From an uncultured Verrucomicrobiae bacterium (lineage in GTDB: Bacteria; Verrucomicrobiota; Verrucomicrobiia; Chthoniobacterales; UBA10450): a stretch of DNA of 64,000 nt. The first letter of the stretch is position 1. Every line of letters begins with the position of its first letter. The notes beneath the pieces are model-generated. The model made no database searches, was not told the DNA's origin, and worked only from the letters and a program-made list of their open reading frames with translations. Location of the stretch: assembly GCA_963834385.1 (NCBI GenBank), contig CAWIBO010000005.1, forward strand, positions 736,001 through 800,000. The letters run 5' to 3'. Below, piece after piece: positions 8,845-63,600 of the stretch. Position numbers and translations under genes: made by a program.

Positions 8845-8915
8845 AACATATCGACGCATCATGATGCGTCGATTTGTCTCTTGCCTCCCGCCGCCGTTCG
8901 CCGTTTAGTTCCGGC

Positions 8916-12780
<3,865 letters not shown>

Positions 12781-12787
<7 letters not shown>

Positions 12788-21959: not shown

Positions 21960-22198
21960 TATCGAAGGTGAGATGTCAGTGATCAGCGGTCAGCGCTCGC
22001 CCTTCCGATCTCCGACTCCATCTTCCGGCTGCTTCGCAGCGCCTTTCAGCTTGTCAGCTTTTCAGCATTTTCCCCTCTCCGCTCCCGGCCTCCGACTTCC
22101 GACTTCCTCCCCCTGATAACCGATAACTGACAACTGATCACCGCGCCGTCCCGGCGCCCTGCCTCTTAACTCTTAATTCTTAATTCTTAATTCTTAAT
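21960..22198. repeat. Mosaic heptamer/hairpin junction
   Basis: (TTTCAGC)n, (CCGACTT)n, (GATAACC)n, 17-mer at 22141 and (TTCTTAA)n. Confidence 0.85.
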
Positions 22199-24128
22199 TT
22201 CCCCCGTTCCCCAACAGATCCCCAAATACACCGCCACATAAAGCTGGATCGAAAAGATCTGTAACGGAAAATCCACCAGCGCGTGCAGCGCCACCCCGCC
22301 CAGCGCCAGGACCACCAGCGGAACCAGCAACCGATGCCGCGGCAACCAGGACGGCGGGGAAGAATTTTCGATTCTCGATTTTCGATTCTCGATTGCTCCC
22401 TTCAGCTTCTCGCGTTCTCCTTCCTCCCATTAACCGATAACCGATAACCGATAACCGGCTGCCCGCAGCCTACCGACAACTGATCACCGATTACCGGCCG
22501 CTCCGCGGCCCTTGTCAGCTTTTCAGCGTTTTCTCCTTCCTCCCCATTAACCGATAACCGATCACCGATAACCGGCTGCCCCGCAGCCTCCACCGATAAC
22601 CGATCACCGATTACCGGCCGCTCCGCGGCCCCTGTCAGCTTTTCAGCGTTTTCTTCTTCTTCTTCCCCACTAACCGATAACCGATCACCGATAACCGGCT
22701 GCCCCGCAGCCTCCACCGATAACCGATCACCGATAACCGGCTGCCTCCGCAGCCATCTCCCATCTCCTATCTTCCCGGCCGCTTCGGCCGCTCGCAGCAG
22801 CCGCCCCCCCAAAGAACAGCGCCGCCCAGAGCGCGCCCCCCAGCCACCCCCATTCCAGCAGCGTTTGCAGATAATCCTGGTGCAGATACCGCCACCCTTC
22901 CCGCAGCTCCGTCCCTTCCCCGCGCGCCACGTGCGGAAAGATGGTGCGGAACGTGCCCGGACCGTACCCCAGCAGCCCGGCCTCCGGCACCCCGCGCAGC
23001 GCCGTCCGCGCCGCCGGCCAGCGCAGGTCCTGAGCACACTTTCCCCGGTGTTTTGCCAGCGCTCGATCGGACGATCCAAACGGCTCGCCTGCCCAATGGC
23101 GTAGATGGCCACGACCAGCAGCAGCACCGTGGCCGCGCCGGTGATCTTCTCCGCGCCCCGCATCAAGCCCGCGCACCCGCGGCAAAGCTGCGACGATCAG
23201 CACCAGCATCAGGAGCAACCCGATCGCCTGCGCGGCCCGCGACGTGTTCGAAACCACCGCGCCGGCCGTGACCAGCGCCGCCGCGATCCAGCCCCCGCGC
23301 ACCAGCGGACTCGCGCGATGATGCAACGCCCGGTAAGCCAGACCAAAGACCACCGGCAGGACGAGGTTCAGGTAGGCGCCCGCGTTGGCGTGATAAAAGT
23401 AGGTCGCAAAGAACTGCGGCGGACCGTAACGCGATTCACCCCAGAAAATCATCTCGGCGCCCGTGCCTTTCTGGAGCAACCCCAGCAGCGCGATGGACGT
23501 GCCGGTCAGGGCCACGCCCGTGAGCAGACGCAGAAACCACTGCGGACGCCGGCAAAGATCAGCCACAAAGAGGAGCACGCCCAGGAGAAGCGTGGCTCGC
23601 GTCATCCAGGCGAGACTTACCGCCTTGTCCGCCGACCCCGGCCAGCCCGGCCAGGCCTGGTCAATCGGCACCCAGAGATCAAACTCCGTGTCATAGATCC
23701 CCTTCCCATTCCAGGCCATCGCCCATCCGAGGAGCAGCAAAGCCCCCACGATCCCCCAAAGGACCCACCGCCCCGTTCCCCTTTTTCCTTTTTCCTTTTT
23801 CCTTTTGCCTTCCGCCCCCCTCCTCTTCTCCGACCTCCGACCTCCGACCACCGATAACCGGCCGCTTCGCGGCCTTCTTCCCAATAACCATTAACCAATA
23901 ACCAATAACCGGCGGCTGCCCCGCAGCCGCCCCCACCCACAGCAACAGCACCGCTGCAAGCATCCATTCGAGGATCCGGCCGCTCTCCAGCGTCGTGGTG
24001 CCGTAAGCCCACGGCGCCCAGACCAGCGCCACCACCAAACCCCACCCGGCCACACCGCCCAGCAGCGTAGAAAACTTCCAGCCCCGCGGCAGCGGCGGCA
24101 GCCATTGAATACGCGGTCGACGCGACAT
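22187..24128 (-). CDS. O-antigen ligase/Wzy_C family membrane protein with two internal repeat insertions and frameshifts
   Basis: [30 protein letters not shown] and [13 protein letters not shown]-terminal [17 protein letters not shown] resumes at ~22369 after the repeat block, stop at 22187. Confidence 0.8.
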
Positions 24129-24183
24129 GCGGCCAACACTAAGCCAGGAAGAACCCCGGAAGGAATCGGAAGTTGGTTACTTG

Positions 24184-24612
24184 TTATTTGTTATCAGTTA
24201 TTGGTTCTCGCGCGAAATTCGTTCCCGTTGCCCCGGCGCGTTTAAGATAAGCCATGTAGCCATTCAAGAGACGGACCGCCGTGCTGACGAGATCGCGACC
24301 CTCTTCGAGCATCTCACTCGAAATCATTTTCTCGTCCTGCGCGGCGATCAGATGATCGAGGACTTCCCAGCATGAGCCGCGCGCGTTGCTGCAGAATTTC
24401 GCGTTATCGAGATGATGAAATCGTCCGTAACCCTCCGCGATATTTGCCGTCGTCGAGCGTGCCGCGCGTAAGATTTGATCCCCCAGACGGTATCGCTCCT
24501 CTTTCGGGAGCGCCGGGATTACGGAGCCGGAAACGAATTTCCGTAACTCACGACACGCCTGCCAGCACTCAAGATCTTCAAAGCTCCGAATGGGGGCACG
24601 TTCACCACTCAC
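24184..24612 (-). CDS. Four-helix-bundle protein (23S rRNA IVP/Avd-like family)
   Basis: SFEDLECWQ, LPKEERYRLGDQILRAARS, ANIAEGYGR and ARGS motifs. Confidence 0.92.
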   Translation of the reverse strand: MSGERAPIRSFEDLECWQACRELRKFVSGSVIPALPKEERYRLGDQILRAARSTTANIAEGYGRFHHLDNAKFCSNARGSCWEVLDHLIAAQDEKMISSEMLEEGRDLVSTAVRLLNGYMAYLKRAGATGTNFAREPITDNK

Positions 24613-24825
24613 CGGCTAACGTTATCAGACCGGTCAATCCTCCCGACCAATAACCCATAACGAGTAACCAATAACGATCTTCCCTCACCGCCTCCCAATA
24701 ACCAATAACCAATAACCAGTTACCATTTCCCCTTCTCATCGAGCAGCCTTTATTGTAATTTCAAGAACCGCTTTTCGCCGCGCCTTGCCGCCTCCAGGCA
24801 GCGGGCGGCGGTCGCCCCGCACTCC

Positions 24826-26347
24826 ATGCTCGCCACCGATCATCTCGACACCCAGCCATCCGCGCCGATGGCCGTCGAGCCGATCCCGCCTCCTGCGCCG
24901 GTCCGGCCGGCCCCGGCCCCGACCCAAAGCCGCTGGCGCCGGTTCGCCCGCACCGCTGTCCGGCAGGACTGGTCCGCGCCGGCCCTTTGCCTCCTGATCG
25001 ACGTCGGCCTTTGGAGCGTGATCTACGGCACGACCGCCTACGTCCGCGGCGATTCCTTTTATTCCACGCCGCTCCAGTTTGCGGTCATCAACCTGATCCC
25101 GCTCGCGGTTCTCTTTGCCGCCCTTTTCATCATTGGCGGATACGATCGCCGGACCCCGATGCGCAGCCTGGTCTATACCAGCGAACACATCCTGGCCATG
25201 ATCACGGCGGCCGTCGTCTCCTCCCTCCTGATTTACGCCGCCGCCGCTTACGACCAGCAGATGCGTCCCAGCCGCGGCGCCCTGCTTGATCAGCTTCATC
25301 CTCTTTTCTCCGCTCTCCCTCATCTACCGCCGGATCATCTGGCGGTATCTCGCGGTCTCGACCGCCAACCGCGCGTTTCTGGTCATCGGCGCGGGCGAAC
25401 TGGCTGCTTCGTTTTATCGGGCCTACAAAACCTCGCCCAACCGCCAGCGACTCGAGTTCGTCGCGCTCGAACGCGACCGGGTGGGCGAACCGATCTTTGG
25501 GCCCGGGTCACCGATCATCGAGGGCGACCTCGCGACCAAGCTGGAACGGCTCGACTCCCAGTATAGCGGCGTGATTCTGGCGGAAGCGGTCGATCGCCTC
25601 AGCCCGAAGCTGCTGGATCGTTTGGTCCGGACCCAGTTTCATTCCACCCGGGTTTACACCATGGAATCGTTTTACGAGGCGCACTGGCGACACGTCCCGG
25701 TGCAGGCGCTTGACCCGTTCTGGCCGTTGCAGACCGGGTTCCAGCTCGCCAGCATCTCGCCTTATCATTACGTGAAACGCCTCTTCGACATCCTCCTCAC
25801 CGGCCTATTGCTGGTCGTGTGTGCCCCGGTCATGGCCTTGATCGCCGTTGCCATCTGGCTTGAGACCGGCCGGCCGATCATCTTTCGTCAGACCCGGCTG
25901 GGGCGCGAGGAGCTGCCCTTCAGCGCCCTGAAGTTCCGGACCATGTTTTTGCGGACGGGGGAAGAAGCCGGGGAAGACATTTACACCCGGCAAAACGATC
26001 CGCGGATCACCCGGGTGGGCCGGCTCCTGCGCAAGCTGCGTCTGGACGAACTGCCGCAGCTTTGGAACGTGTTCCGGGGCGAGATGAGCCTGATCGGTCC
26101 CCGGGCCGAGTGGGACCGTTGCGCCGAGCGTTACGCCGCCGTGATCCCGTTCTATCATTTCCGGCACCTGGTAAAGCCGGGGATCACCGGCTGGGCCCAG
26201 GTCAATTATCCGTATGGCGAAAGCGACGCCGACGCGATCGAGAAACTAAAGTTCGACCTCTACTACATCCGCCACTACTCCCTGAAGCTCGATCTCATGA
26301 TCGTCCTGAAAACGATTCACACCGTCCTTTTCGGAAAAGGAAGGTGA
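24826..26347 (+). CDS. Priming polyprenyl glycosylphosphotransferase (sugar transferase); frameshift near 25285
   Basis: [38 protein letters not shown] and DLYYI motifs. Confidence 0.92.
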
Positions 26348-50360: not shown

Positions 50361-51227
50361 GTGAAAGCGCTCAAACATGGCGTGAAGCACGTTTTATGGC
50401 GAGGGCTGCAACTGATGAGTCTCGGCCGTGAGGTAGCCGAATTGAGAGTATTGCGTGGCCCCGCGAAAGGTGTTTGGATGGAAATTGATCTTCGCAAAGA
50501 AGGCTCCTATTGGCTCGGAACTTATGACCAGTGGCTATTGAGCCGGATTCATTTGGAACGACTGGTTAAACCGGGCCACGTCGTTTGGGATTGTGGCGCG
50601 TACATTGGATATTACACGGCTATTCTTCGCCGGTTGGTCGGCGATAACGGCCAGGTGATTACGTTTGAAGCGTCCTCAAAGAACTATCAACGGGTAGCAC
50701 GACTGCCCGAACTCAACGGCTGGAAAAATGTGATCGTGCTTCAAAGGGCCATTGGCCCAGATCATTCAGTCATTGAATTTGTGTCCAACCTCGCCGGAGG
50801 CAGCGGACCATACGGGCTGACTAAGACATATTCAGATAAAGACGTGCTCGAAGTCGAAAAAGTGCGGTGCGTGGGATTGGATGAATTGGTTTACGAGCAG
50901 CAATGCCCGATTCCGGACTTTATGAAATTCGATCTCGAGACTGCGGAAGAGTTCGCATTGCATAACGGACCGAGGCTTTTTTCGGAGAAGCGCCCCCTGC
51001 TGCAACTCGAATTGCACGGTGAAAAGGCCCCTGCCGCGACGGGACAATTTCTTGAGAGGTATGACTATGCCGCGTGGGACGTACTCCAGTTGCCGCTTGG
51101 CACACCGCCTTTCTCCCTTTCAGCGTGTCAGTTTTTCAGTTTTTCAGTTGGATCGTTCGACCATGAACGAGCCGAGCACCAGCACGTCCATCAGTTGGAA
51201 AAGGAGAAAGTAGAAAGTCCAAAGTAG
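50361..51227 (+). CDS. FkbM-family methyltransferase, opposite strand; C-terminus runs into a repeat tract
   Basis: WDCGAYIG, FEAS, MKFDLE.AE and LELH motifs. Confidence 0.85.
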   Translation: MKALKHGVKHVLWRGLQLMSLGREVAELRVLRGPAKGVWMEIDLRKEGSYWLGTYDQWLLSRIHLERLVKPGHVVWDCGAYIGYYTAILRRLVGDNGQVITFEASSKNYQRVARLPELNGWKNVIVLQRAIGPDHSVIEFVSNLAGGSGPYGLTKTYSDKDVLEVEKVRCVGLDELVYEQQCPIPDFMKFDLETAEEFALHNGPRLFSEKRPLLQLELHGEKAPAATGQFLERYDYAAWDVLQLPLGTPPFSLSACQFFSFSVGSFDHERAEHQHVHQLEKEKVESPK

Positions 51228-51553
51228 AAGACTGAGACAAGGCGGCTTTTCACCCTTTTCGCTCTCCCGACCCTTTCTACCTTCCACCTTCAACTTTCTC
51301 CCTTTCGCTCGAGCAAGAAATTACCGAGAGCGAGGACGTCCATCGGTTGGAGAAGTAAAAGGTGCAAAGTCCAAAGTAGAAAACTGAGCAAGCGGCTTTC
51401 AGCCTTTTTGCTCTCCAGATCCTTTTTACTTTCCACCTTCAACTTTCTCCTTTTCGCTCGAGCAAAAAACTACCGAGAGCGAGCACGTCCATCTGGAAGA
51501 AGAAGTAGAAAGTGAAAAGTCCAAATTAGAAGCTGAGCAGGGAGCCGATCGCC
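51144..51553 (-). repeat. Array of three displaced carbamoyltransferase C-terminal tails separated by heptamer-rich spacers
   Basis: ATGGACGT starts at 51492, 51343 and 51191 encode MDVLALGSFLLERKGES*, MDVLALGNFLLERKGES* and MDVLVLGSFMVERSN*. Confidence 0.9.
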
Positions 51554-53387
51554 CTAAACGCTTGGCGCCCTTTCAATATGGAAACTGCCTAACACTAAGA
51601 CATCCATTTTGGTGCGGAGAAAGCAGTCGAGGGCTTCTTCCGGGCGGCAGACGACCGGTTCGTTCTCGTTGAAGCTGGTGTTGAGAACCAAAGGCACGCG
51701 AGGTCAGGGATCGGAAGTCGGAGATCAGCTGGTGATAAAGGGGGTTTGTCTCCTGGTGCACGGTCTGGAGCCGCCCCGAACCGTCGGCGTGGCAGACCGC
51801 CGGGATCTGGCTGCGCTTCTCTTCCCGGATCTGGAACACTTGCATCATGAACGGGACGTCGTCCTCCTGCTCAAACCATTCCCCCACGGCTTCCCGCAGG
51901 ATGGAGGGCGCAAACGGCCGGAATGATTCGCGCCGCTTGATCTTGGCATTCAGGATATCTTTCATGTCGGCCCGGCGCGGGTCGCCCAGGATCGACCGGT
52001 TTCCCAAGGCGCGCGGACCCCACTCGAGGCGGCCCTGAAACCAGCCGACGACGCGCCCCTCGGCGATGGCCGCCGCTGTCCGCGTCGTCAGCTCGGTCGA
52101 AACGCTGAAAACTGAAACGCTGAGATGCTGAAACTCCGGATTCCGGCCCTCTCGCAACCCTCGCTCGCGCAACAGCTGCTCGATCTCAGCGTCCGAAAAC
52201 TCAGGGCCGAGGAAAGCGCTATCGAGACCTCGTCTCGATAGAAGCTGGTAGTTGGAAGTCGGAAGATTGGCCGATTCTTTCAGCTTTTCAGTTGTCAGCT
52301 TTTCAGCTTTTCCGTCGGCGAGCTTCGCCGCGACGACCGCCGCCGCACCGATCGCGCCGCCGGCGTCGCCGGCCGCGGCCGGCAGATACATCCGCCGAAA
52401 CGGCGTGTGCAGATACACTTTGCCGTTGGCCACGGAGTTCATGGCGCACCCGCCGGAGAGGGCCAGATTCTCCGACGGTCGTGCCCGATGAGTTGCGTTC
52501 AGCAAGGCAAAGAACGCTTCCTCGTACATGGCCTGGACCGAGCGCGCGATGTCCTTGTGCTTTTGCTCGAGCGGTTCCTCCTTCGCCCGCGGCGGCCCCA
52601 AAAGCTCGGCCAGTTTGTCGGTGTACAGGATCCCACCTCAGGGGCGCAATCTTTCCAGCTGTAAGAGACGTTGTCGGTGTGATGCCGGAAATAACGCAGG
52701 TTAAGCCGGAACGTGCCGTCGGACTGCACCCGGACAATCTGGCGCATCTGCGGCAGGAACCGCGGCTCGCCGTAGGGCGCCAGGCCCATCACCTTGTATT
52801 CGTCTCCATAATGCGGAAAGCCGATGAACTGGGTGAGCGCCGAATAAAAGATGCCAAGCGAATGCGGAAAATAGACGCGCTGATCAATCGTGATCTCGGG
52901 CCCGCTACCCCACCCGATCGCGGTGCTGGCGAAATCGCCGAATCCATCGATGGAAACGCAGGCCGCCTCCGTGAACCCCGACACCAGGAAAGCCGAGGCC
53001 AGATGGGCATGATGATGCTCCACGTGATGCAGCTCGGCTGACAACGACATCCCATAGGCCTCTTCCAAGGCTTCCTTGGCGCCGCCGGCGCTCCGGATAT
53101 TGCGAATCTTCTCCAGCATCAGCCGCGGATCAGGCCGATGCCGCAGGACAAAGGCCAGCCGACGCCAGTTGTTCACCCCGGGCTTCCGATTGACCGCGAT
53201 ATGGTCAACGTCGCGCAGGGTGGCTCCCGCCTCCGCGCAGACAGTAATCAATCGCTTGCGTGGGAAGCCCGGCCCAATGTTTGATTCGCCGAAAGCGTTC
53301 CTCCTCCACCGCCGCGACCAGCTCGCCATCCTTGAAGAGGCAGGCAGCGGAATCGCCGTGATAAGCGTTTAGCCCTAAAATGAGCAT
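51554..53387 (-). CDS. NodU/CmcH-family carbamoyltransferase; frameshifted, with two in-frame repeat insertions
   Basis: HGDSAA..EEERF.R.KH, EHHHAH, YKVMGLAPYG, GGCAMN, GPRALGNRS and RESFRPFAP; ends TKMDVLVLGSFHIERAPSV*. Confidence 0.92.
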
Positions 53388-53435
53388 TTTAGGGCGAAAA
53401 GCTGAAATGCTGACACGCTGAAAAGCTGAAATTAC

Positions 53436-53810
53436 TCATGTCGCCCGTTCACTCCGTCGCAACTTGCTGATCATCGTTGTAAAGACTGCCAATAGTTCGT
53501 GTGATTCTGTTTTCAGATGGATAAGCTTTTCGTCCTTAATGTCACACTCCTCGTGGAGTAATTCGAGCCAGAGCTGGGATTCATCGGCTTCTTGAAGCAA
53601 TCCATCAAGCTTGGAGCAAAACTCCGCCTCGGAGCGCGCTCGAGAAGCTTCACGGGCGTGCGCGGCCACCGATGTCCCCGCCCGCAAAAGTTGGCGCCCA
53701 AGTATTTGTACTTCTCCGCGCTGCGTTGGGAGCCTGACATACAGTCGAATAATCTCGGAGGCATATCGTTTCGTACGGTCACGCAGTTCTTCAGAAAGTC
53801 GCATCGCCAA
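53436..53810 (-). CDS. Four-helix-bundle protein (23S rRNA IVP/Avd-like family)
   Basis: LRDRTK, QLLRAGTSVAAH.REA.RARS and EADES..WLELL motifs. Confidence 0.92.
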   Translation of the reverse strand: MAMRLSEELRDRTKRYASEIIRLYVRLPTQRGEVQILGRQLLRAGTSVAAHAREASRARSEAEFCSKLDGLLQEADESQLWLELLHEECDIKDEKLIHLKTESHELLAVFTTMISKLRRSERAT

Positions 53811-53853
53811 ATTTCAGCTTTTCAGCGTTTCAGTCTTTCAGCTTTTGCTTTTT

Positions 53854-54939: not shown

Positions 54940-55503
54940 TCAACCTTTTGCTGCCTTCTCTGCGGCGGACCATTGTTCTTCCAACCCCAACTCAGCCGCA
55001 GCTTGACCCGTCAAAGCGCGATCAGGGTTGGACAGACGCAGCATCGCGGCAATATCCCGAAGATGCTTTGGGTCGGCGCTTTCACGGTAGAATTCCAGCT
55101 TCCAAAGGATCACATACTCGGGCGGCGCCAGCATCACCTTCTCATCGCGCAATGAAACTGGCCGGCGGTGTTCCATCGCCCATGAAAAATAGGGATGACC
55201 CGTCGACGGATAGAAATCCGCCTTTAAACCGGAACCGCTGTGAATGATGTTGAAATGGCCTCTGCTCTCCCGCCCAATCTCCACCGCGAGCACGTCGGCC
55301 GAGGGCAGATAATACTCTTCCTCGGAGTAGGCGGAGCGGAGCTGTGCAAGATCGTTTTGGCGGAGCGACACCGCGATATCGATATCCAGGGTCGCACGTG
55401 GCTCCCCATAGACCACCGCGGCCACCGCACCGGAGACCATGTATGGAACCGCGGTGCGATTGAGCGGCCGGATGAAAAGCTCGATCAGGTCGGGTTCGCG
55501 CAT
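54940..55503 (-). CDS. Nucleotidyltransferase-fold protein (putative TA component)
   Basis: PYMVSGAVAA..YGEPRATLDIDI, PEYVILWKL and KHLRDI motifs. Confidence 0.7.
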   Translation of the reverse strand: MREPDLIELFIRPLNRTAVPYMVSGAVAAVVYGEPRATLDIDIAVSLRQNDLAQLRSAYSEEEYYLPSADVLAVEIGRESRGHFNIIHSGSGLKADFYPSTGHPYFSWAMEHRRPVSLRDEKVMLAPPEYVILWKLEFYRESADPKHLRDIAAMLRLSNPDRALTGQAAAELGLEEQWSAAEKAAKG

Positions 55504-55676
55504 GAAGCGAAAATGCGGGAAACCTCCTGAGAAACCTGGTCCCCGGTCCAATCCGGGTGCCTCTGGCGAACACCCGCGGTTTTCAACTCGCGCAGCATCC
55601 GCATTAACTGACTGAAAAGGGCGTACTTCTCCTGCGCGGACAAGGAACGCCATATCTCCTCCTGCTGGGCAGTCAC
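55485..55676 (-). CDS. Small helical partner of the nucleotidyltransferase
   Basis: QEEIWRSLSAQEK..GVRQRHPDW; overlaps the start of the downstream gene. Confidence 0.65.
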   Translation of the reverse strand: MTAQQEEIWRSLSAQEKYALFSQLMRMLRELKTAGVRQRHPDWTGDQVSQEVSRIFASCANPT

Positions 55677-55699
55677 AGGGAACGGTCGTCTACCGACCC

Positions 55700-56022
55700 G
55701 GGATGGCAAGGCTGCGAAGCAGCCGAAGCTTGGAAGATGGCCGCGGAGCGGCCGGTTATCGGTGATGGGTTGTTGGTTATCGGGAAGCAGGAAGAGGGGG
55801 GAATGAGGGTGGAGGATTGAAGATAGCTGGGAGCTAGGGCCTGAAGGGCCAAATGCTGAAACACTGACACGCTGAAAAGCTGACATTGGCTGCGAAGCAG
55901 CCGGAAGCTGGAAGCTGGAAGATGGAAGTTGGAAGCTGGAAGCTGGGAGCTGGAATGCTGACAGCTGCGGAGCAGGGACGCTGGGAGCTGGGAGCTGGGA
56001 GCTGGGAGCTAGGGAAGAAAAG
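55700..56022. repeat. Mosaic heptamer/hairpin junction
   Basis: GGCTGC-GAA-GCAGCC twice, (GCTGAAA)n and (GGAAGCT/GGGAGCT)n. Confidence 0.88.
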
Positions 56023-56265
56023 CTACTTGTCGAGATCGAGTCGCTCGGCGACCCGCAATGCTCCATCGAGAACCTTACCTGTGGGAAGATTGTCTTCCGT
56101 CGGGGGACTGGGAACCCATTCGCCACGCTCAACGAGGGCGGCCGCATGGGCCATCAACTGTTCGATACTCAAAAGCGGATAATGTCTCACCATCCAGGCG
56201 GTGAGGCGGAGACGCTCATCTGCTGGAAGCGTATCTACCGCCCGCTGTATCTCGCTCAAGCTCAT
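56023..56265 (-). CDS. Small addiction-module-like protein (80 aa)
   Basis: MSLSEIQRAVDTLPADERLRL N-terminus; isolated between repeat junctions. Confidence 0.6.
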   Translation of the reverse strand: MSLSEIQRAVDTLPADERLRLTAWMVRHYPLLSIEQLMAHAAALVERGEWVPSPPTEDNLPTGKVLDGALRVAERLDLDK

Positions 56266-56339
56266 TAGCTCAAGCTTACTGCGCGAAAACTCCAACGGCA
56301 AGACGGCGGAGGCTGGAGGCCGCTCGGAGCTAGGGGAAA

Positions 56340-56485
56340 AAAATAAGAATCAGGAAAGCAGGAACACAGGAAGAGATAGAGGATGGAGAGGAGAGGATAG
56401 AGAATTGCGGTTCCCGATAACCAATAACCAATAACCAATAACCGCGCCGTCCCGGCGCTCCCCTTCTTAATTCTTAATTCTTCCT
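56340..56485. repeat. Mosaic junction closely matching 18685-18832
   Basis: Same module order: GAATCAGGAAAGCAGGA, AGAGGATAGAGAAT, (TAACCAA)n, 17-mer, (TTCTTAA)n. Confidence 0.9.
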
Positions 56486-57395
56486 TTAATCCACCGGCGC
56501 TTCCCGCCCGTAGCGCAGGATCAGCCAGGGGAGGATGCGCGCGCTCCAGAAGCGGGGAACGAAAGTGCGCGGCTGCGCGAAGTATTCGGAAAAGCCAGCC
56601 GAGATACAAACGGTCAGCCCACATGGGGATCGCCACCTGGTCGCCCGTGACAAAACCCGGGGCCGCCCCGATGCAATGAATGGCGGGGCGATAGTCGAGC
56701 GCCTCCTTGAGATAAAGCCCCAGCTTGTCCTGCATGCCGCCGCCGATCGCCACGATGATGTGTTGCGGCTTGCGCTGCTGAACCATTCTGAGCAGCGCTA
56801 AGTCCGGCAAGCGTGGGGCCTGGAGCATGGGGTTCGGAGTTGGGACCAGAAGCTCAGAACGCTGGGGGCTTGTGACCTTCGTGTCCAGCTCCATGTTCGC
56901 TGCCCTGCGCCCCTTGCCCTCAGAATCTCGCGATCTCCGTGCTTCACTACCGCCTGCTCCGGCGGTAGATTCGCGGCGCCACGTAGCAATCGTCTCCGGC
57001 GCGAGCGGATAACCGTTCTCTTCGGCCCAGCGCAACGTCGTCTTTTGCGCCTGCTCACCCGGCAGGATCCAGAAGAAGGCCGCGGGCTCTTTTGCTTCCG
57101 GCAATTCGAGCAACGCTTTGAACAGGCGCAGACCGGAAATGCGGGTGAGTTGTTCGCCTTTCAAGAGGCGCCAGAAAACGACCAGCCAGCCGGAATCGGC
57201 AATGGCGAGATCAGCGTGCGCAATGGCGTGGCGATAGTCAGGGTCGCGCCGGAGCGCGATCATGGACGGCCCGGCCGGCGCCACGATGAGTCCGCCGTGC
57301 GCCGAAGCCCACCGCGCCGCTTCCTCCGCCGTCCCCTGGAAGAAATCGACGCCGAGGACGCGAGTCGTCGGGAAAATGCTGAAAAGCTGGACATG
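56486..57395 (-). CDS. WecB/TagA/CpsF family glycosyltransferase (copy 2); internal insertion and frameshifts, start uncertain
   Basis: RVLGVDFF, ADLAIADSG, GGGMQDKLG, CIGAA and YLGWLFR motifs. Confidence 0.8.
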
Positions 57396-57900
57396 TGCTG
57401 GGAGTGGAAGATAGGGTCACGGAGCAGGTGGCAAAAGCTGAAAACTAGAGTCAGAAAGCCCGGAGGAATGGGCATGGAGTGACAGCCGGAAAGCGGATGA
57501 GTCGGCTGGTGGCATTTAGCAGGCCGGAGACCAGTTTGCGATCAAGACCTGACAGTTGTGGCGAAGGCTGCTGGCTCTTTCTCCGCACGCTTTTCGGAAA
57601 ATTGTCGGACAATCTGAGGCTCGTAGAGAATATCGGTTCGCACGCAGATTGCGGGCGGCAACGTTAGCAACACTAACAGTATCGCCGAAGGTGCAGGAGT
57701 CGTTCGAAGGCCAGTCTCGACGGTGTTCGTCATAATCGATGACCGACGCCGCTCGATCTTCGAGGTGGCGAAAATGCTGCATCAGTTCTCGCTGAGAACG
57801 CGAAGCTTCCTCAGACCGTGATCGATCGCGTTGATCGAGACTTCAGCGGGAAAGCCGCATGCTCCACGCGTTCATGAAAACCCTGGAAAGCACATAGCCG

Positions 57901-58030
57901 TGCTCCCTGCTCCCTGCTCCCTGCTCCCTGCTCCCTGCTCCCTGCTCCCTGCTCCCGTGCTCCGTGCTCCGTGCTCCGTGCTCCGTGCTCCGTGCTCCGT
58001 GCTCCGTGCTCCGTGCTCCGTGCTCCGTGC
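57901..58030. repeat. (GCTCCCT)n(GCTCCGT)n heptamer tract
   Basis: About 18 near-perfect 7-mers directly after the helicase stop. Confidence 0.95.
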
Positions 58031-58044
58031 GTACCGGCGGCGCG

Positions 58045-59356
58045 CTAGCGCCGGCCGAACGATCGCGGGCCGCGGGTGGAGGCGAAACCGCGCGGACGCT
58101 GGCCGCTCCGGCGCGCCGCGGCTTCGCCGCTGCCGCGGGAGCTGTTGCCGGGCGATTTTGGCTCGATCCGCGGACGCGCTTCGCGCCGGGGTCCGCGATC
58201 TTCCCGCGGCGGCGCCGCCGCGTTGTAATCGAATCCTTCCGCCCGTTTCCGGACAATCCCGCGCCCGATAAACCGCTCGAGCGAGCGCAACGGTCCCTGG
58301 TCTTCCGGGGTGATGAAGCGAAATCGCATCGCCAATCGCCTGGGCCCGGCCGGTCCGGCCAATCCGGTGCACGTAATCCTCGGAGTGCATCGGGAAATCG
58401 TAGTTCACCACGTGCGAAATGCCGTCCACATCGATCCCGCGCGCGGCGATGTCGGTCGCGACCAGCACCCGGACCACGCCTGACTTGAAATCTTTCAGCG
58501 CACGCAGCCGCTGGTTTTGCGATCGGTTGGAATGGATGGTGCCGGTCTTGATCCCGCTGGTCTCGAGCCGGCGCGCAATCCGGTCAGCCCCATGCTTGGT
58601 CCGGGTGAAGACCAGCACGGTGTCGAAGCTCGGGTCTTCCAGCAGATGCAGCAGCAACGCCGGCTTCAGGTGCTGGCGCACTTCGTAAACGAACTGGGTC
58701 ACGGTCTCGGCCGGGTTGGCCCGCCGCCCGATCTCCACCGTCTTCGGTGAATTTTGGAACTCGTGGGTCAGACCCTCGATCTCGCGCGAAAGCGTGGCGG
58801 AAAACATCAGGGTCTGGCGTTTGGCCGGGAGCGCTTTCACGATCCGCCGGATCGGCGGCAGGAAACCCATGTCGAGCATCCGGTCAGCCTCATCCAGGAC
58901 GAAGAACTCGACCCCGGAGAGGTTGGCGGCTCCCTGCTGCATCAGATCGATCAGACGGCCGGGCGTGGCCACGACCAGGTCGACCCCGGCGCGCAAAGCG
59001 GCCATTTGCGGGCGTTCGCTGACCCCGCCGAAGATGGTGGCCATGCGGAGCGGCAGATGTTTGGCGTAAGCCCGGACGTTCTCCTCGATCTGCGCGACCA
59101 GCTCGCGCGTGGGCGCGACGACCAGGGCGCGCGGACCGCGCCGCTGACCGTTGGCGGGGGCGGCGGCGAGTTTGGACAAAATGGGCCAGACAAAGGCGGC
59201 GGTCTTGCCGGTGCCGGTCTGGGCGATGCCGATGACGTCGTGCCCGGCGAGGATGGGCGGCACAGCGGCCAATTGGATCGGGGTCGGCTCTGTGTAACCG
59301 GCCTCGGCGACGGCTTGCAGGATCTCTGGGGAAAGGTGGAGGGAACGGAACGGCAT
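58045..59356 (-). CDS. DEAD-box RNA helicase (RhlE-like); frameshift near 58325
   Basis: Q motif, AQTGTGKT, PTREL, DEAD, SAT and HRIGRTGRA motifs. Confidence 0.93.
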
Positions 59357-59449
59357 AAGTGATTACTGTCGCTCAATTTAGGGGGTTTTGCCAGCGGCGG
59401 AATCGCTGCTGGCGAAATGACGAAGGACGGATGACGAAGGACGAACTTG

Positions 59450-59735
59450 GGCTGCGGAGCAGCCGGGAGCCAGGGAAGAAAAGTGAGAATTAGGAAGTAA
59501 GAAGGATGAAAGGGAGCGGGCGCGGCGGAAGCAGGTCCCTCCGTTCCGCCCTCCGCCCCCTGATAACCGATAACCGATAACCGATAACCGATAACCGATC
59601 GAACCGACCGTAACCGATAACCGATAACCGATCCCCGATAACCGATACCCGCCGTCGCCGACCTCCGACCTCCGACCCTCCGACTTCCGACCTCCGACTT
59701 CCGACCTCCGACCTCCGACTTCCGGCTTCCGGCTT
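59450..59735. repeat. Mosaic junction with REP-like half
   Basis: GGCTGC-GGA-GCAGCC, GCGGAAGCAGGTCCCTCC, (GATAACC)n and (CCGACCT/CCGACTT)n. Confidence 0.9.
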
Positions 59736-59736
59736 C

Positions 59737-59949
59737 TCAGAGCCTTTCCCACTCTTCTGGACTGATTCGCGCTTGATTCAAAATGCGTTTTACGAGTGTC
59801 CAATCCAGATCGCTGCCATGTGGGTTAGGCACAATGAGGCGCCGACCCTCTTTACGCATAAAAGGATGCGATCCTCCCCCCTCGGGTCCCTTCCAGCCAC
59901 AACTGCGCAAGCGCCGGATGAACTCGCGCCGCTTGATCGGCTTAGGCAT
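59737..59949 (-). CDS. hicA: HicA family toxin
   Basis: 70 aa with GGSHPFM..VPNPH..ILNQA. Confidence 0.88.
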   Translation of the reverse strand: MPKPIKRREFIRRLRSCGWKGPEGGGSHPFMRKEGRRLIVPNPHGSDLDWTLVKRILNQARISPEEWERL

Positions 59950-60187
59950 CCACCAGCTCGCGCGGGTTTAGATCGATCCCATCGATTGCAGGAAGTGGAT
60001 CACCATGGCGGAGTCCGCCCATGATCCAGCTTTCAACTGCGCCTCGGAGTTCTTCGCGACACCTCTCAAGAGTCTCAGCTTCAGCCCAGGCGCCCTCGCA
60101 CTCCGCGATCGAGCCGAAAAAACGGCTGTTCTCAGTTATCTCGTAATGGGCGTGACGCAAAGCAGCCGCAATATACTCAGTGAGCAT
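59942..60187 (-). CDS. hicB: HicB family antitoxin (short form)
   Basis: MLTEYI.AAL..A.YE..G.WA.AETLE.C; overlaps hicA. Confidence 0.88.
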   Translation of the reverse strand: MLTEYIAAALRHAHYEITENSRFFGSIAECEGAWAEAETLERCREELRGAVESWIMGGLRHGDPLPAIDGIDLNPRELVDA

Positions 60188-60240
60188 GAATTGAATCCTA
60201 GCCTTTTGTCTTCCCGGTGCGAGCCGAAAAAAAGAGGGGA

Positions 60241-60376
60241 CGGAAGGACGAGCTTCTGCTCGTCCGCGGACCTGCGGAAGCAGGTCCCTCCGTTCCGCCC
60301 CCTGATAACCGATAACCGATAACCGATAACCGATAACCGCGCCGTCCCGGCGCCTCCGACTTCCGACCCCCGCCTC
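60241..60376. repeat. REP-like doublet plus heptamer/17-mer junction
   Basis: GGACGAGC-TTCT-GCTCGTCC gc GGACCTGC-GGAA-GCAGGTCC, (GATAACC)n and 17-mer at 60337. Confidence 0.9.
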
Positions 60377-60377
60377 G

Positions 60378-60668
60378 CTATGCCGGAACGGGCTCGAACG
60401 GCCGGATCCTCGCGGTTAGGCGGCGCTCCTGCCGTTTCGCTTCACGAAAATCGCACTCGGTCTGTATGTTGAGCCAGAAGCGCGGGCTTTGTGAGAAATA
60501 TGCGCCGAGGCGGATCGACATTTCTGGCGATATCCCTCGTCGGCCCAGAACGATCTCATTAACGGCGCGAGGAGAAACGCCCAGGGCACGCCCCAAGGCG
60601 TTCTGCGAGATTCCCAGAGGCTCCAGGTACTCCTTGAGCAAAATTTCTCCAGGTGTAACCGCTTTCAT
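60378..60668 (-). CDS. higA: HigA family antitoxin
   Basis: PGEILLKEYLEPLGISQ..NEIV.G.R.I..FWLNIQ motif. Confidence 0.92.
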   Translation of the reverse strand: MKAVTPGEILLKEYLEPLGISQNALGRALGVSPRAVNEIVLGRRGISPEMSIRLGAYFSQSPRFWLNIQTECDFREAKRQERRLTARIRPFEPVPA

Positions 60669-60698
60669 GCCATATCCTATAGCGTTATAGGTGCCATC

Positions 60699-60977
60699 TC
60701 AATGATAATCTGTGATCTCCAGGTTTGCCGGGCCCGCTTCCGTCCAGCGGAAGCAGATTCGCCATTGATCGTTGATTCGAATCGCATACTGGCCGGCGCG
60801 GTTTCCTTTCAACATTTCCAATCTGTTCCCGGGTGGAACGCGCAGATCCGAAAGCGCTTCCGCGGAATGCATTTGTACCAGCTTGCGAAGGGCGATGCGC
60901 GCGAAAGCGCCGAAACGTCGCGATACCCCTGTTTCCCAAAGGCGCTCCGTTTCGCGGTCCTTAAACGATTGGATCAT
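60699..60977 (-). CDS. higB: HigB (RelE/ParE-like) toxin
   Basis: MIQSFKD, PPGNRLE.LKG, IRINDQWRICF and DYH motifs. Confidence 0.93.
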   Translation of the reverse strand: MIQSFKDRETERLWETGVSRRFGAFARIALRKLVQMHSAEALSDLRVPPGNRLEMLKGNRAGQYAIRINDQWRICFRWTEAGPANLEITDYH

Positions 60978-61018
60978 GGATCCCGATCACCGCCTTCTTA
61001 ATTCTTCCTTCTTAATTC

Positions 61019-63600
<2,582 letters not shown>

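Follow-up and report, generated by a model that had tools for sequence, protein, structure and literature searches.

Intervening sequences (IVSs) of bacterial 23S rRNA that carry an open reading frame (ORF) are the closest described counterparts of the locus considered here, a four-helix-bundle gene (gene 1) enclosed by inverted heptamer arrays in a stretch of 64,000 nt, hereafter the window, from an uncultured Verrucomicrobiae bacterium of the order Chthoniobacterales (GenBank assembly GCA_963834385.1, contig CAWIBO010000005.1, positions 736,001 to 800,000). In Coxiella burnetii, as described in the parts of the source that treat the element, the 23S IVS has a 28-bp terminal stem and three tandem heptamers before the S23p ORF, RNase III cuts at the first repeat, and the authors deem S23p to be decaying and untranslated (PMC4990558). 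The gene 1 locus shares with the IVSs covered there an ORF of the PF05635 family in the loop of a stem made of terminal inverted repeats, tandem heptamers of strain-variable copy number directly before the ORF, and an element length of ~430–570 nt (PMC4990558). Since the architecture is the same, gene 1 is read here as a stem-loop cassette of the IVS type that forms part of an operon transcript, a reading to which we would assign a probability of about one half. In contrast to the rRNA elements, the cassette lies between protein-coding genes and not at helix 25 or 45 of the 23S rRNA; its protein is under purifying selection, where S23p is considered to be decaying; and cleavage by RNase III, shown in Coxiella, is here only presumed (PMC4990558, same parts).

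The arms also recall a second group of described elements. Tandem heptamers have been known since the cyanobacterial short tandemly repeated repetitive (STRR) sequences, with a partner that is still unidentified according to the available text of a preprint on Nostoc (bioRxiv 10.1101/2022.06.06.494920). In the main passages on these repeats, TAACTGA heptamers are reported from Beggiatoaceae, Cyanobacteria and Bacteroidetes, with S1, Csp or CsrA as proposed binders (PMC4679880), and the GGGAATC heptamers of Xanthomonas form 70–75 convergent repeat pairs without a link to a gene (PMC4692102). These are intergenic tandem 7-mers, often a few bases from a start codon, as are the arrays described here; GATAACT, a rotation of TAACTGA, is found among the 3′-arm units, and a Planktothrix cassette uses AATCCCC units. 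However, the same passages treat solo arrays or G-quadruplex motifs (PMC4679880, PMC4692102), whereas the arrays here are inverted pairs enclosing one gene family.

At the level of the protein, the four-helix-bundle fold is shared with Avd, the accessory protein of diversity-generating retroelements (DGRs), from which gene 1 differs in having only ~10% sequence identity; no reverse transcriptase domain appeared among the 91 window ORFs that were scanned. In RAYT-REPIN systems, a short repeat that is dispersed through the genome also occurs as inverted copies on both sides of a single-copy gene. This likeness of layout extends to the present locus, which differs in encoding a small helical bundle without HUH/Y1 transposase features and in having tandem arrays where RAYT-REPIN has single palindromes.

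Gene 1, its arms and its relatives

Gene 1 (24184..24612, minus strand) encodes 142 aa from a GTG start in an intact reading frame. A preliminary description of this DNA, made from the letters alone, gave the coordinates and orientation that are retained here, and also claimed membership of the 23S rRNA IVS protein family, an Avd-like fold, and a position of the ORF in the loop of a long stem formed by upstream tracts complementary to a downstream one; all of this is borne out by the results that follow. Gene 1 is above the cut-offs of both PF05635 (23S_rRNA_IVP; 8.6e-26, 90.7 bits, Pfam cut-off 33.8) and TIGR02436 ‘four helix bundle protein’ (5.3e-24, 84.5 bits, cut-off 24). The structural model is confident (predicted local distance difference test, pLDDT, 91.5), with four long helices arranged as a four-helix bundle, and it matches XCC0516 (2gsc) with a template-modelling (TM) score of 0.93–0.95, BT_0352 (2rld) with 0.81–0.87, and phage Avd (4dwl) with 0.82 normalised to the target, as well as the Avd chains of DGR ribonucleoprotein structures (8ub7, 8ube). 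Five chains are listed for each solved relative, 2gsc and 2rld, which, together with a description quoted in the relevant part of PMC4990558, suggests a homopentameric ring for the family.

On the sense strand (the minus strand of the window), the outer 5′ arm (24695..24725) consists of ~4 tandem GTTATTG-type heptamers, an inner 5′ heptamer tract (24646..24683) is an alternative partner for the 3′ arm, and this 3′ arm (24168..24206), made of degenerate NNATAAC heptamers, overlaps the end of the ORF, namely its stop codon and final seven codons. Tandem Repeats Finder (TRF) reports period 7 at 24176–24206, 24649–24677 and 24695–24718, that is, head-to-tail heptamers in the arms. The repeat search gave two complementary pairs, 24174–24204 with 24695–24725 (31 nt, 84%) and 24168–24205 with 24646–24683 (38 nt, 79%), so that gene 1 has two alternative 5′ tracts for one 3′ tract. 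When 24160–24730 is folded as minus-strand RNA, the outer stem closes the ORF in the minimum free energy structure (z = −3.34; 1 of 100 shuffles as good), and in the partition function the number of pairs expected with the 3′ tract is 27.3 for the outer tract and 0.0 for the inner one, the duplex energy with the 3′ tract being ~−31 kcal/mol for either of them (−31.6 for the inner). An Rfam scan of the window returned tRNA only, with no rRNA match and no family for the arms.

The gene is found in a polysaccharide locus, flanked by a sugar-transferase gene and by a co-directional, downstream Wzy-type (O-antigen-ligase-like) gene, whose start occupies 23928..24128 (minus strand); the segment 24068–23928 is matched in tblastn by the Wzy proteins of two related loci, L001 and L004. 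The order of four-helix-bundle gene and then Wzy-type gene recurs in L001, L004, L008, L026 and L049, and, compared with relatives that also lie upstream of a Wzy-type gene, gene 1 shows a proportion of nonsynonymous differences (pN) of 0.25 against a synonymous one (pS) of 0.80.

As for the downstream Wzy-type gene (22061–24128, minus strand), it is found in three pieces (24068–23928, 23752–22826 and ~22384–22061) between which lie G+C-rich hairpins and heptamer arrays in blocks; among these intervening repeats is a unit of 123 nt present in 2.8 copies at 22415–22754. The last piece is the best conserved (65–68% identity to homologues), and the whole may represent a pseudogene, a gene that has been split, or an artefact of the assembly.

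The window has 59% G+C and is crowded with repeats, TRF returning 112 rows, mostly intergenic, of which by count ~46 have period 7 and 15 period 8; local statistics are therefore weak, and it is the comparative controls that carry the significance. A first hint that the inverted layout is special came nevertheless from the window: the motif CCAATAACCAATAA (CCAATAA-type, with at most two mismatches) has 38 occurrences where 0.11 would be expected; 36 lie on the plus strand, and the two minus-strand cases (24191 and 55770) are the left arms of inverted pairs.

In the database, 4278 relatives of the gene 1 protein are found at E ≤ 1e-3, those at the top being 65–84% identical, from Chthoniobacterales or Verrucomicrobia where named, and many of the closest on contigs of ~0.5–3 kb. 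A search of genome contigs gave 78 loci with relatives in many phyla (Verrucomicrobiota, Kiritimatiellales, Lentisphaeria, Desulfobacterota-type, Bacteroidota, Ignavibacteriales and Cloacimonadota), and a purpose-built hidden Markov model, applied to the stop-to-stop ORFs of these loci and of the window, found 89 family genes, or 85 once four truncated matches had been dropped. The duplex energy of whole flanks ranged from −50 to −165 kcal/mol everywhere and did not discriminate, for which reason complementarity was scored by local alignment of the 160-nt upstream flank with the reverse complement of the 190-nt downstream flank, each gene being compared with 100 shuffles of its own. In this survey of homologue flanks, which had been proposed from the start, complementarity exceeds all 100 shuffles in 61/85 family genes, as opposed to 21/356 control ORFs from the same DNA (odds ratio 40, p = 8e-37), and a score of at least 30 is reached by 45 of the 85 in the inverted orientation and by 14 in the direct one. 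Two armed ORFs of the first control set are in fact divergent PF05635 genes. In an independent sample of plasmid-borne relatives, from Cyanobacteriota, Chloroflexota, Bacteroidota, Spirochaetota, Gemmatimonadota and an Azospirillum, all 14 examined are above their shuffles, two of them marginally, and perfect arms of 39 nt, built of four AATTCGT units, are found in a Nostoc cassette.

Among the 21 control hits there are two genes of another small multi-copy family, GxxExxY/PDDEXK_3 (TIGR04256, PF13366), at L049:5695–6069 and L024:4009–4398; both of the members that were met have inverted flanking repeats above shuffles.

The units of the arms follow a regular design. In the gene 1 subfamily the heptamer is G-T-T-A followed by T/A, T/C and G/A, that is, a fixed 4-nt core with three variable positions, with a mode of four units per arm; phased GTTA upstream together with phased TAAC downstream is found in 46/85 genes, and the opposite arrangement in none (0/85). 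From Verrucomicrobiota to Bacteroidota the subfamily keeps this GTTAYNN unit, different units being found at divergent paralogues of the same loci, and the other subfamilies use AGTAGAA, GTCGGAY, GGCGGAG, TTTTAGA, AATCCCC, GGAGTCA or octamers, the arms being inverted in every case. The mirror relation goes down to the single unit, given that complementarity is 0.90 in register and 0.61 after a shift of 7 nt, and the two arms of a gene fit each other (median score 35) better than they fit arms from the other loci (27; p = 2e-8), the own partner ranking in the top five for 25 of 46 genes.

A strict rule of one repeat unit for one clade was considered and rejected, because the units vary in the subfamily of a second gene of the window (gene 2, below): with proteins ~70% identical, they differ between L079 and L080 and between L081 and L082, and are common to L082 and L083, and to L002b and L012b.

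Of the 150 nearest neighbouring ORFs, 116 are on the strand of the four-helix-bundle gene. A Pfam scan of 129 of the 145 distinct neighbours (those in the window itself, those of near-duplicate loci and a few ORFs of small size being omitted) shows recurrent junctions, V-ATPase B|D in seven loci, sdhA|sdhB in seven and nuoG|nuoH in six, as well as trp and ilv operons, UDP-sugar dehydrogenases, and a sugar transferase upstream and/or a Wzy-type gene downstream; on plasmids the cassettes lie inside defence operons (such as DrmD|PglX, DUF1156|HEPN and cas10|cmr3). In the 61 armed cassettes the median arm is 28 nt and the median loop 423 nt, and the 3′ arm overlaps the end of the ORF in 28 of them; the median distance is 3.5 nt from the upstream stop codon to the 5′ arm (n = 40) and 7.5 nt from the 3′ arm to the downstream start codon (n = 42). 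The arms thus abut the neighbouring cistrons, so that the cassette fills the intercistronic gap, and their pairing would juxtapose the flanking stop and start.

A different arrangement is seen in five loci of Saprospiraceae/Lewinellaceae (L058, L060, L061, L063 and L072), where the four-helix-bundle gene is antisense within the ilvB/ilvN/ilvC operon, with heptamer arrays in both orientations, further from the ORF, and loops of ~540–580 nt.

Both the protein and the arms are conserved. In four sets of cassettes at a common junction, one of them including gene 1, the median pN is 0.12–0.29 and the median pS 0.72–0.80, which indicates purifying selection on the protein. The outer stem, with 21 pairs, is recovered by RNAalifold in a set of seven V-ATPase B|D orthologues of the cassette, in which identity is 0.86 and 0.87 in the two arms, 0.82 and 0.91 at codon positions 1 and 2, 0.50 at third positions and 0.42 in the DNA outside the arms; being as conserved as the first two codon positions, the arms must be regarded as functional elements. 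The IVS-like layout claimed in the preliminary description, arm, ORF and arm, is a property found family-wide, and it matches that of the Coxiella 23S IVS.

The same layout is found a second time in the window. Gene 2 (53436..53810, minus strand; likely ATG at 53804) is a divergent four-helix-bundle ORF detected through a Pfam scan of the 91 candidate ORFs of the window (PF05635, 6.8e-13, 49.2 bits; TIGR02436, 1.9e-18, 66.6 bits); it has no BLAST similarity to gene 1, for which tblastn found no second copy in the window. Its 5′ arm (53810..53846, minus strand; 33.4 of 37 expected pairs) and 3′ arm (53397..53433, minus strand) are octamer arrays of 37 nt, 92% complementary, which tightly bracket the ORF, and the predicted fold closes the ORF in a stem (z = −4.16; 0 of 100 shuffles as good). 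Heptamer arms in one case and octamer arms in the other show a single architecture common to divergent genes with unrelated units.

The proposed stem-loop cassette and its rivals

The proposed cassette consists of a 5′ arm, a four-helix-bundle ORF and a 3′ arm, each arm having about four 7-nt units and being the reverse complement of the other. We infer that it would be transcribed with its host operon, in the case of gene 1 ahead of the Wzy-type gene of the polysaccharide locus, and that in vivo the arms would pair in the RNA into an imperfect helix of ~30 bp, looping out the ~430-nt ORF. As the arms end, on their outer sides, within a few bases of the neighbouring stop and start codons, this helix would join the flanking cistrons and the operon would be left undisturbed. 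The helix would probably gate the translation of both the four-helix-bundle ORF and the downstream gene, and it would be a likely substrate of RNase III.

Some of the results weigh against this proposal: (i) there are two 5′ tracts that could serve as the arm of gene 1; the gene is not intercistronic on its 5′ side, where the neighbour is divergent; and a sigma-70 scan found no promoter-like site; (ii) 24/85 family genes fail the shuffle test, many low-scoring loci carrying, on inspection of their flanks, short or degenerate arms under the threshold, and a few loci have arrays in direct orientation (six ‘GG’ and one ‘TT’); (iii) the arm mismatches that would be compatible with G·U pairing number 42 on the sense strand as compared with 31 on the antisense one (p = 0.24), besides 85 transversions, and without a sense-strand bias pairing in RNA is not separated from pairing in DNA, so that the pairing may be at the DNA level, or each arm may be under an independent constraint; (iv) and finally, in the V-ATPase B|D set only 1 of the 21 stem pairs has a compensatory change, covariation being almost absent owing to the sequence conservation of the arms, which protein-binding sites would explain equally well.

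This last point leads to the first rival explanation, which we consider doubtful taken as a whole: the arms would be arrays of binding sites for the four-helix-bundle protein, a ring oligomer in the solved relatives, with one subunit per heptamer, and the protein would regulate its own cassette and act on solo arrays of the same unit throughout the genome, in a system of gene and repeat. The design of the unit, with its fixed core of 4 nt, its three variable positions and its usual four copies per arm, speaks for such sites, and the five chains of 2gsc and 2rld and the presence of Avd in a DGR ribonucleoprotein point the same way. GTTAYNN travels with the gene 1 subfamily from Verrucomicrobiota to Bacteroidota, the divergent paralogues having other units; some solo arrays of the window belong to unit classes that flank paralogues elsewhere (AGTAGAA and TCCGAC-type); the sequence conservation of the arms is not limited to their pairing; and the partner of the Nostoc heptamer repeats is, in the available text, ‘yet to be identified’ (bioRxiv 10.1101/2022.06.06.494920). 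However, the ~70% identical proteins of the gene 2 subfamily have differing units, though some share theirs, no nucleic-acid-binding motif was identified in the protein, and binding alone leaves unexplained both the inverted orientation of the arrays and their mirroring unit by unit. The binding sites and the stem-loop could, in any case, be compatible.

The second rival, which we regard as unlikely, supposes that the arms are the terminal inverted repeats (TIRs) of a cassette that is mobile at the DNA level, with the ORF as its mobility factor or its passenger, and with either a stem-loop in single-stranded DNA or ends recognised by a recombinase encoded elsewhere. TIRs, by which elements of this type are defined, are present, and the limits of homology coincide with them, given that the L002b and L012b cassettes can be aligned from 5′ arm to 3′ arm and no further, and the DNA of the window with its relatives only within 24183–24675. 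There are also a dozen or more kinds of junction, besides the interior of the 23S rRNA, other small genes are enclosed in the same manner (GxxExxY, and an 81-aa ORF in 55753–56444), arm pairs without an ORF exist, and the G·U test gave no strand bias. On the other hand, no transposase is found in the cassette or among its neighbours and no target-site duplication was noticed in the flanks that were read, without a systematic search; nor was an empty site found, with the same limit. The arms differ in sequence from one close relative to the next, as the ends that a recombinase recognises do not, purifying selection on the protein is strong, and the V-ATPase B|D (7), sdhA|sdhB (7) and nuoG|nuoH (6) junctions are kept across families, orders or phyla, which speaks of a long residence. 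Of the mobile unit that the preliminary description had proposed, there remain the homology confined between the arms and the diversity of contexts, and the constancy of the junctions counts against mobility itself. This rival, too, may hold together with the stem-loop reading.

That a short gene should have come by chance to lie between two oppositely oriented arrays, in a genome so littered with them that the window alone gives 112 mostly intergenic TRF rows and arrays of the same family lie 264 nt from the gene 1 locus (23881–23910), is hardly credible when 36 of 38 tracts share one orientation and both exceptions close inverted pairs, when 61/85 family genes and 14/14 plasmid loci have arms as opposed to 21/356 controls, and when the arms are conserved above synonymous sites.

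Other repeats and genes of the window

Besides the two cassettes, the window contains arrays in several other arrangements. The TAAC-type tracts are on the plus strand in 36/38 cases whichever way the neighbouring genes point, and the GC skew is negative over 1–50 kb; this bias suggests a strand-specific origin or a strand-specific selection of the solo arrays. At 52085–52312, inverted octamer arrays ~143 nt apart lie inside the frame of a carbamoyltransferase, between its N- and C-terminal domains, in an insert that by our reading of the sequence has 228 nt, a multiple of three, and leaves the ORF open throughout. The region 51181–51539 is occupied by hairpins without an ORF, in which a 149-nt unit, repeated 2.4 times, has each time an AGTAGAA-type array and its complement ~45 nt apart, and units of this class are also found on either side of divergent four-helix-bundle genes at L002 and L012.

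A second GTTA/TAAC inverted pair (55753–55786 with 56411–56444; 34 nt, 88% complementary) encloses an ORF of 81 aa (56023–56268, minus strand) without a Pfam match, together with nested arrays (15.6 copies of AGCTGGA, and octamers), and an AbiEii-like gene (54940–55653) adjoins it. The latter belongs to a series of toxin-antitoxin-type genes that are found between heptamer arrays from 54940 to 61000, with HicA at 59737–59949, HigB at 60699–60977 and its helix-turn-helix (HTH) partner at 60378–60668.

The block ~30000–51000 has 52–56% G+C, as compared with 59–66% elsewhere in the window, no period-7 arrays in the TRF output, and an abundance of glycosyltransferases and FkbM-type methyltransferases, with one flippase-like gene; in all probability this part of the polysaccharide locus was gained by horizontal transfer. 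Finally, metH (8874–12787), clpB (61019–63600), the carbamoyltransferase (51573–53329) and the sugar transferase (24826–26347) are each spread over two or three overlapping frames, owing either to indel errors of the assembly or to multiple pseudogenes. Since the assembly may contain such errors, statements about neighbouring genes that depend on the frame are soft.

Novelty and meaning of the cassettes

A search of the full-text literature, with subscription journals, supplements and database descriptions of families outside its reach, found no paper linking free-standing PF05635 genes to inverted heptamer arms. The terms ‘four helix’, ‘intervening sequence’ and ‘S23’ are absent from the available text of PMC4679880, as are ‘four-helix’, ‘S23’ and ‘intervening’ from that of PMC4692102. 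No description of the layout outside the 23S rRNA was found, though an earlier mention may exist elsewhere.

At a practical level, the arrays create spurious ORFs and may break assemblies, the closest relatives being often on contigs of ~0.5–3 kb. At the level of the cell, cassettes are found within housekeeping operons (V-ATPase, complex I, succinate dehydrogenase, trp, ilv) and within polysaccharide and defence loci, which raises the question of how operons whose genes are translated together tolerate an insertion of ~450–570 nt.

A wider possibility, which must be called speculative, is that the PF05635 proteins are the missing trans-acting partners of the heptamer arrays (STRR, TAACTGA, GGGAATC and the classes of the window), the cassettes being their ‘master’ copies. 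If so, each ring-shaped protein would read one 7-nt unit per subunit, and the solo arrays and ORF-less operon arrays would be the targets of the protein or its offspring. Such a system would account at once for where the arrays come from and for what a family of thousands of uncharacterised proteins does, and would tie together three orphans: the ORFs of the 23S IVSs, a large ‘hypothetical’ family with the fold of Avd, and the tandem heptamer repeats.

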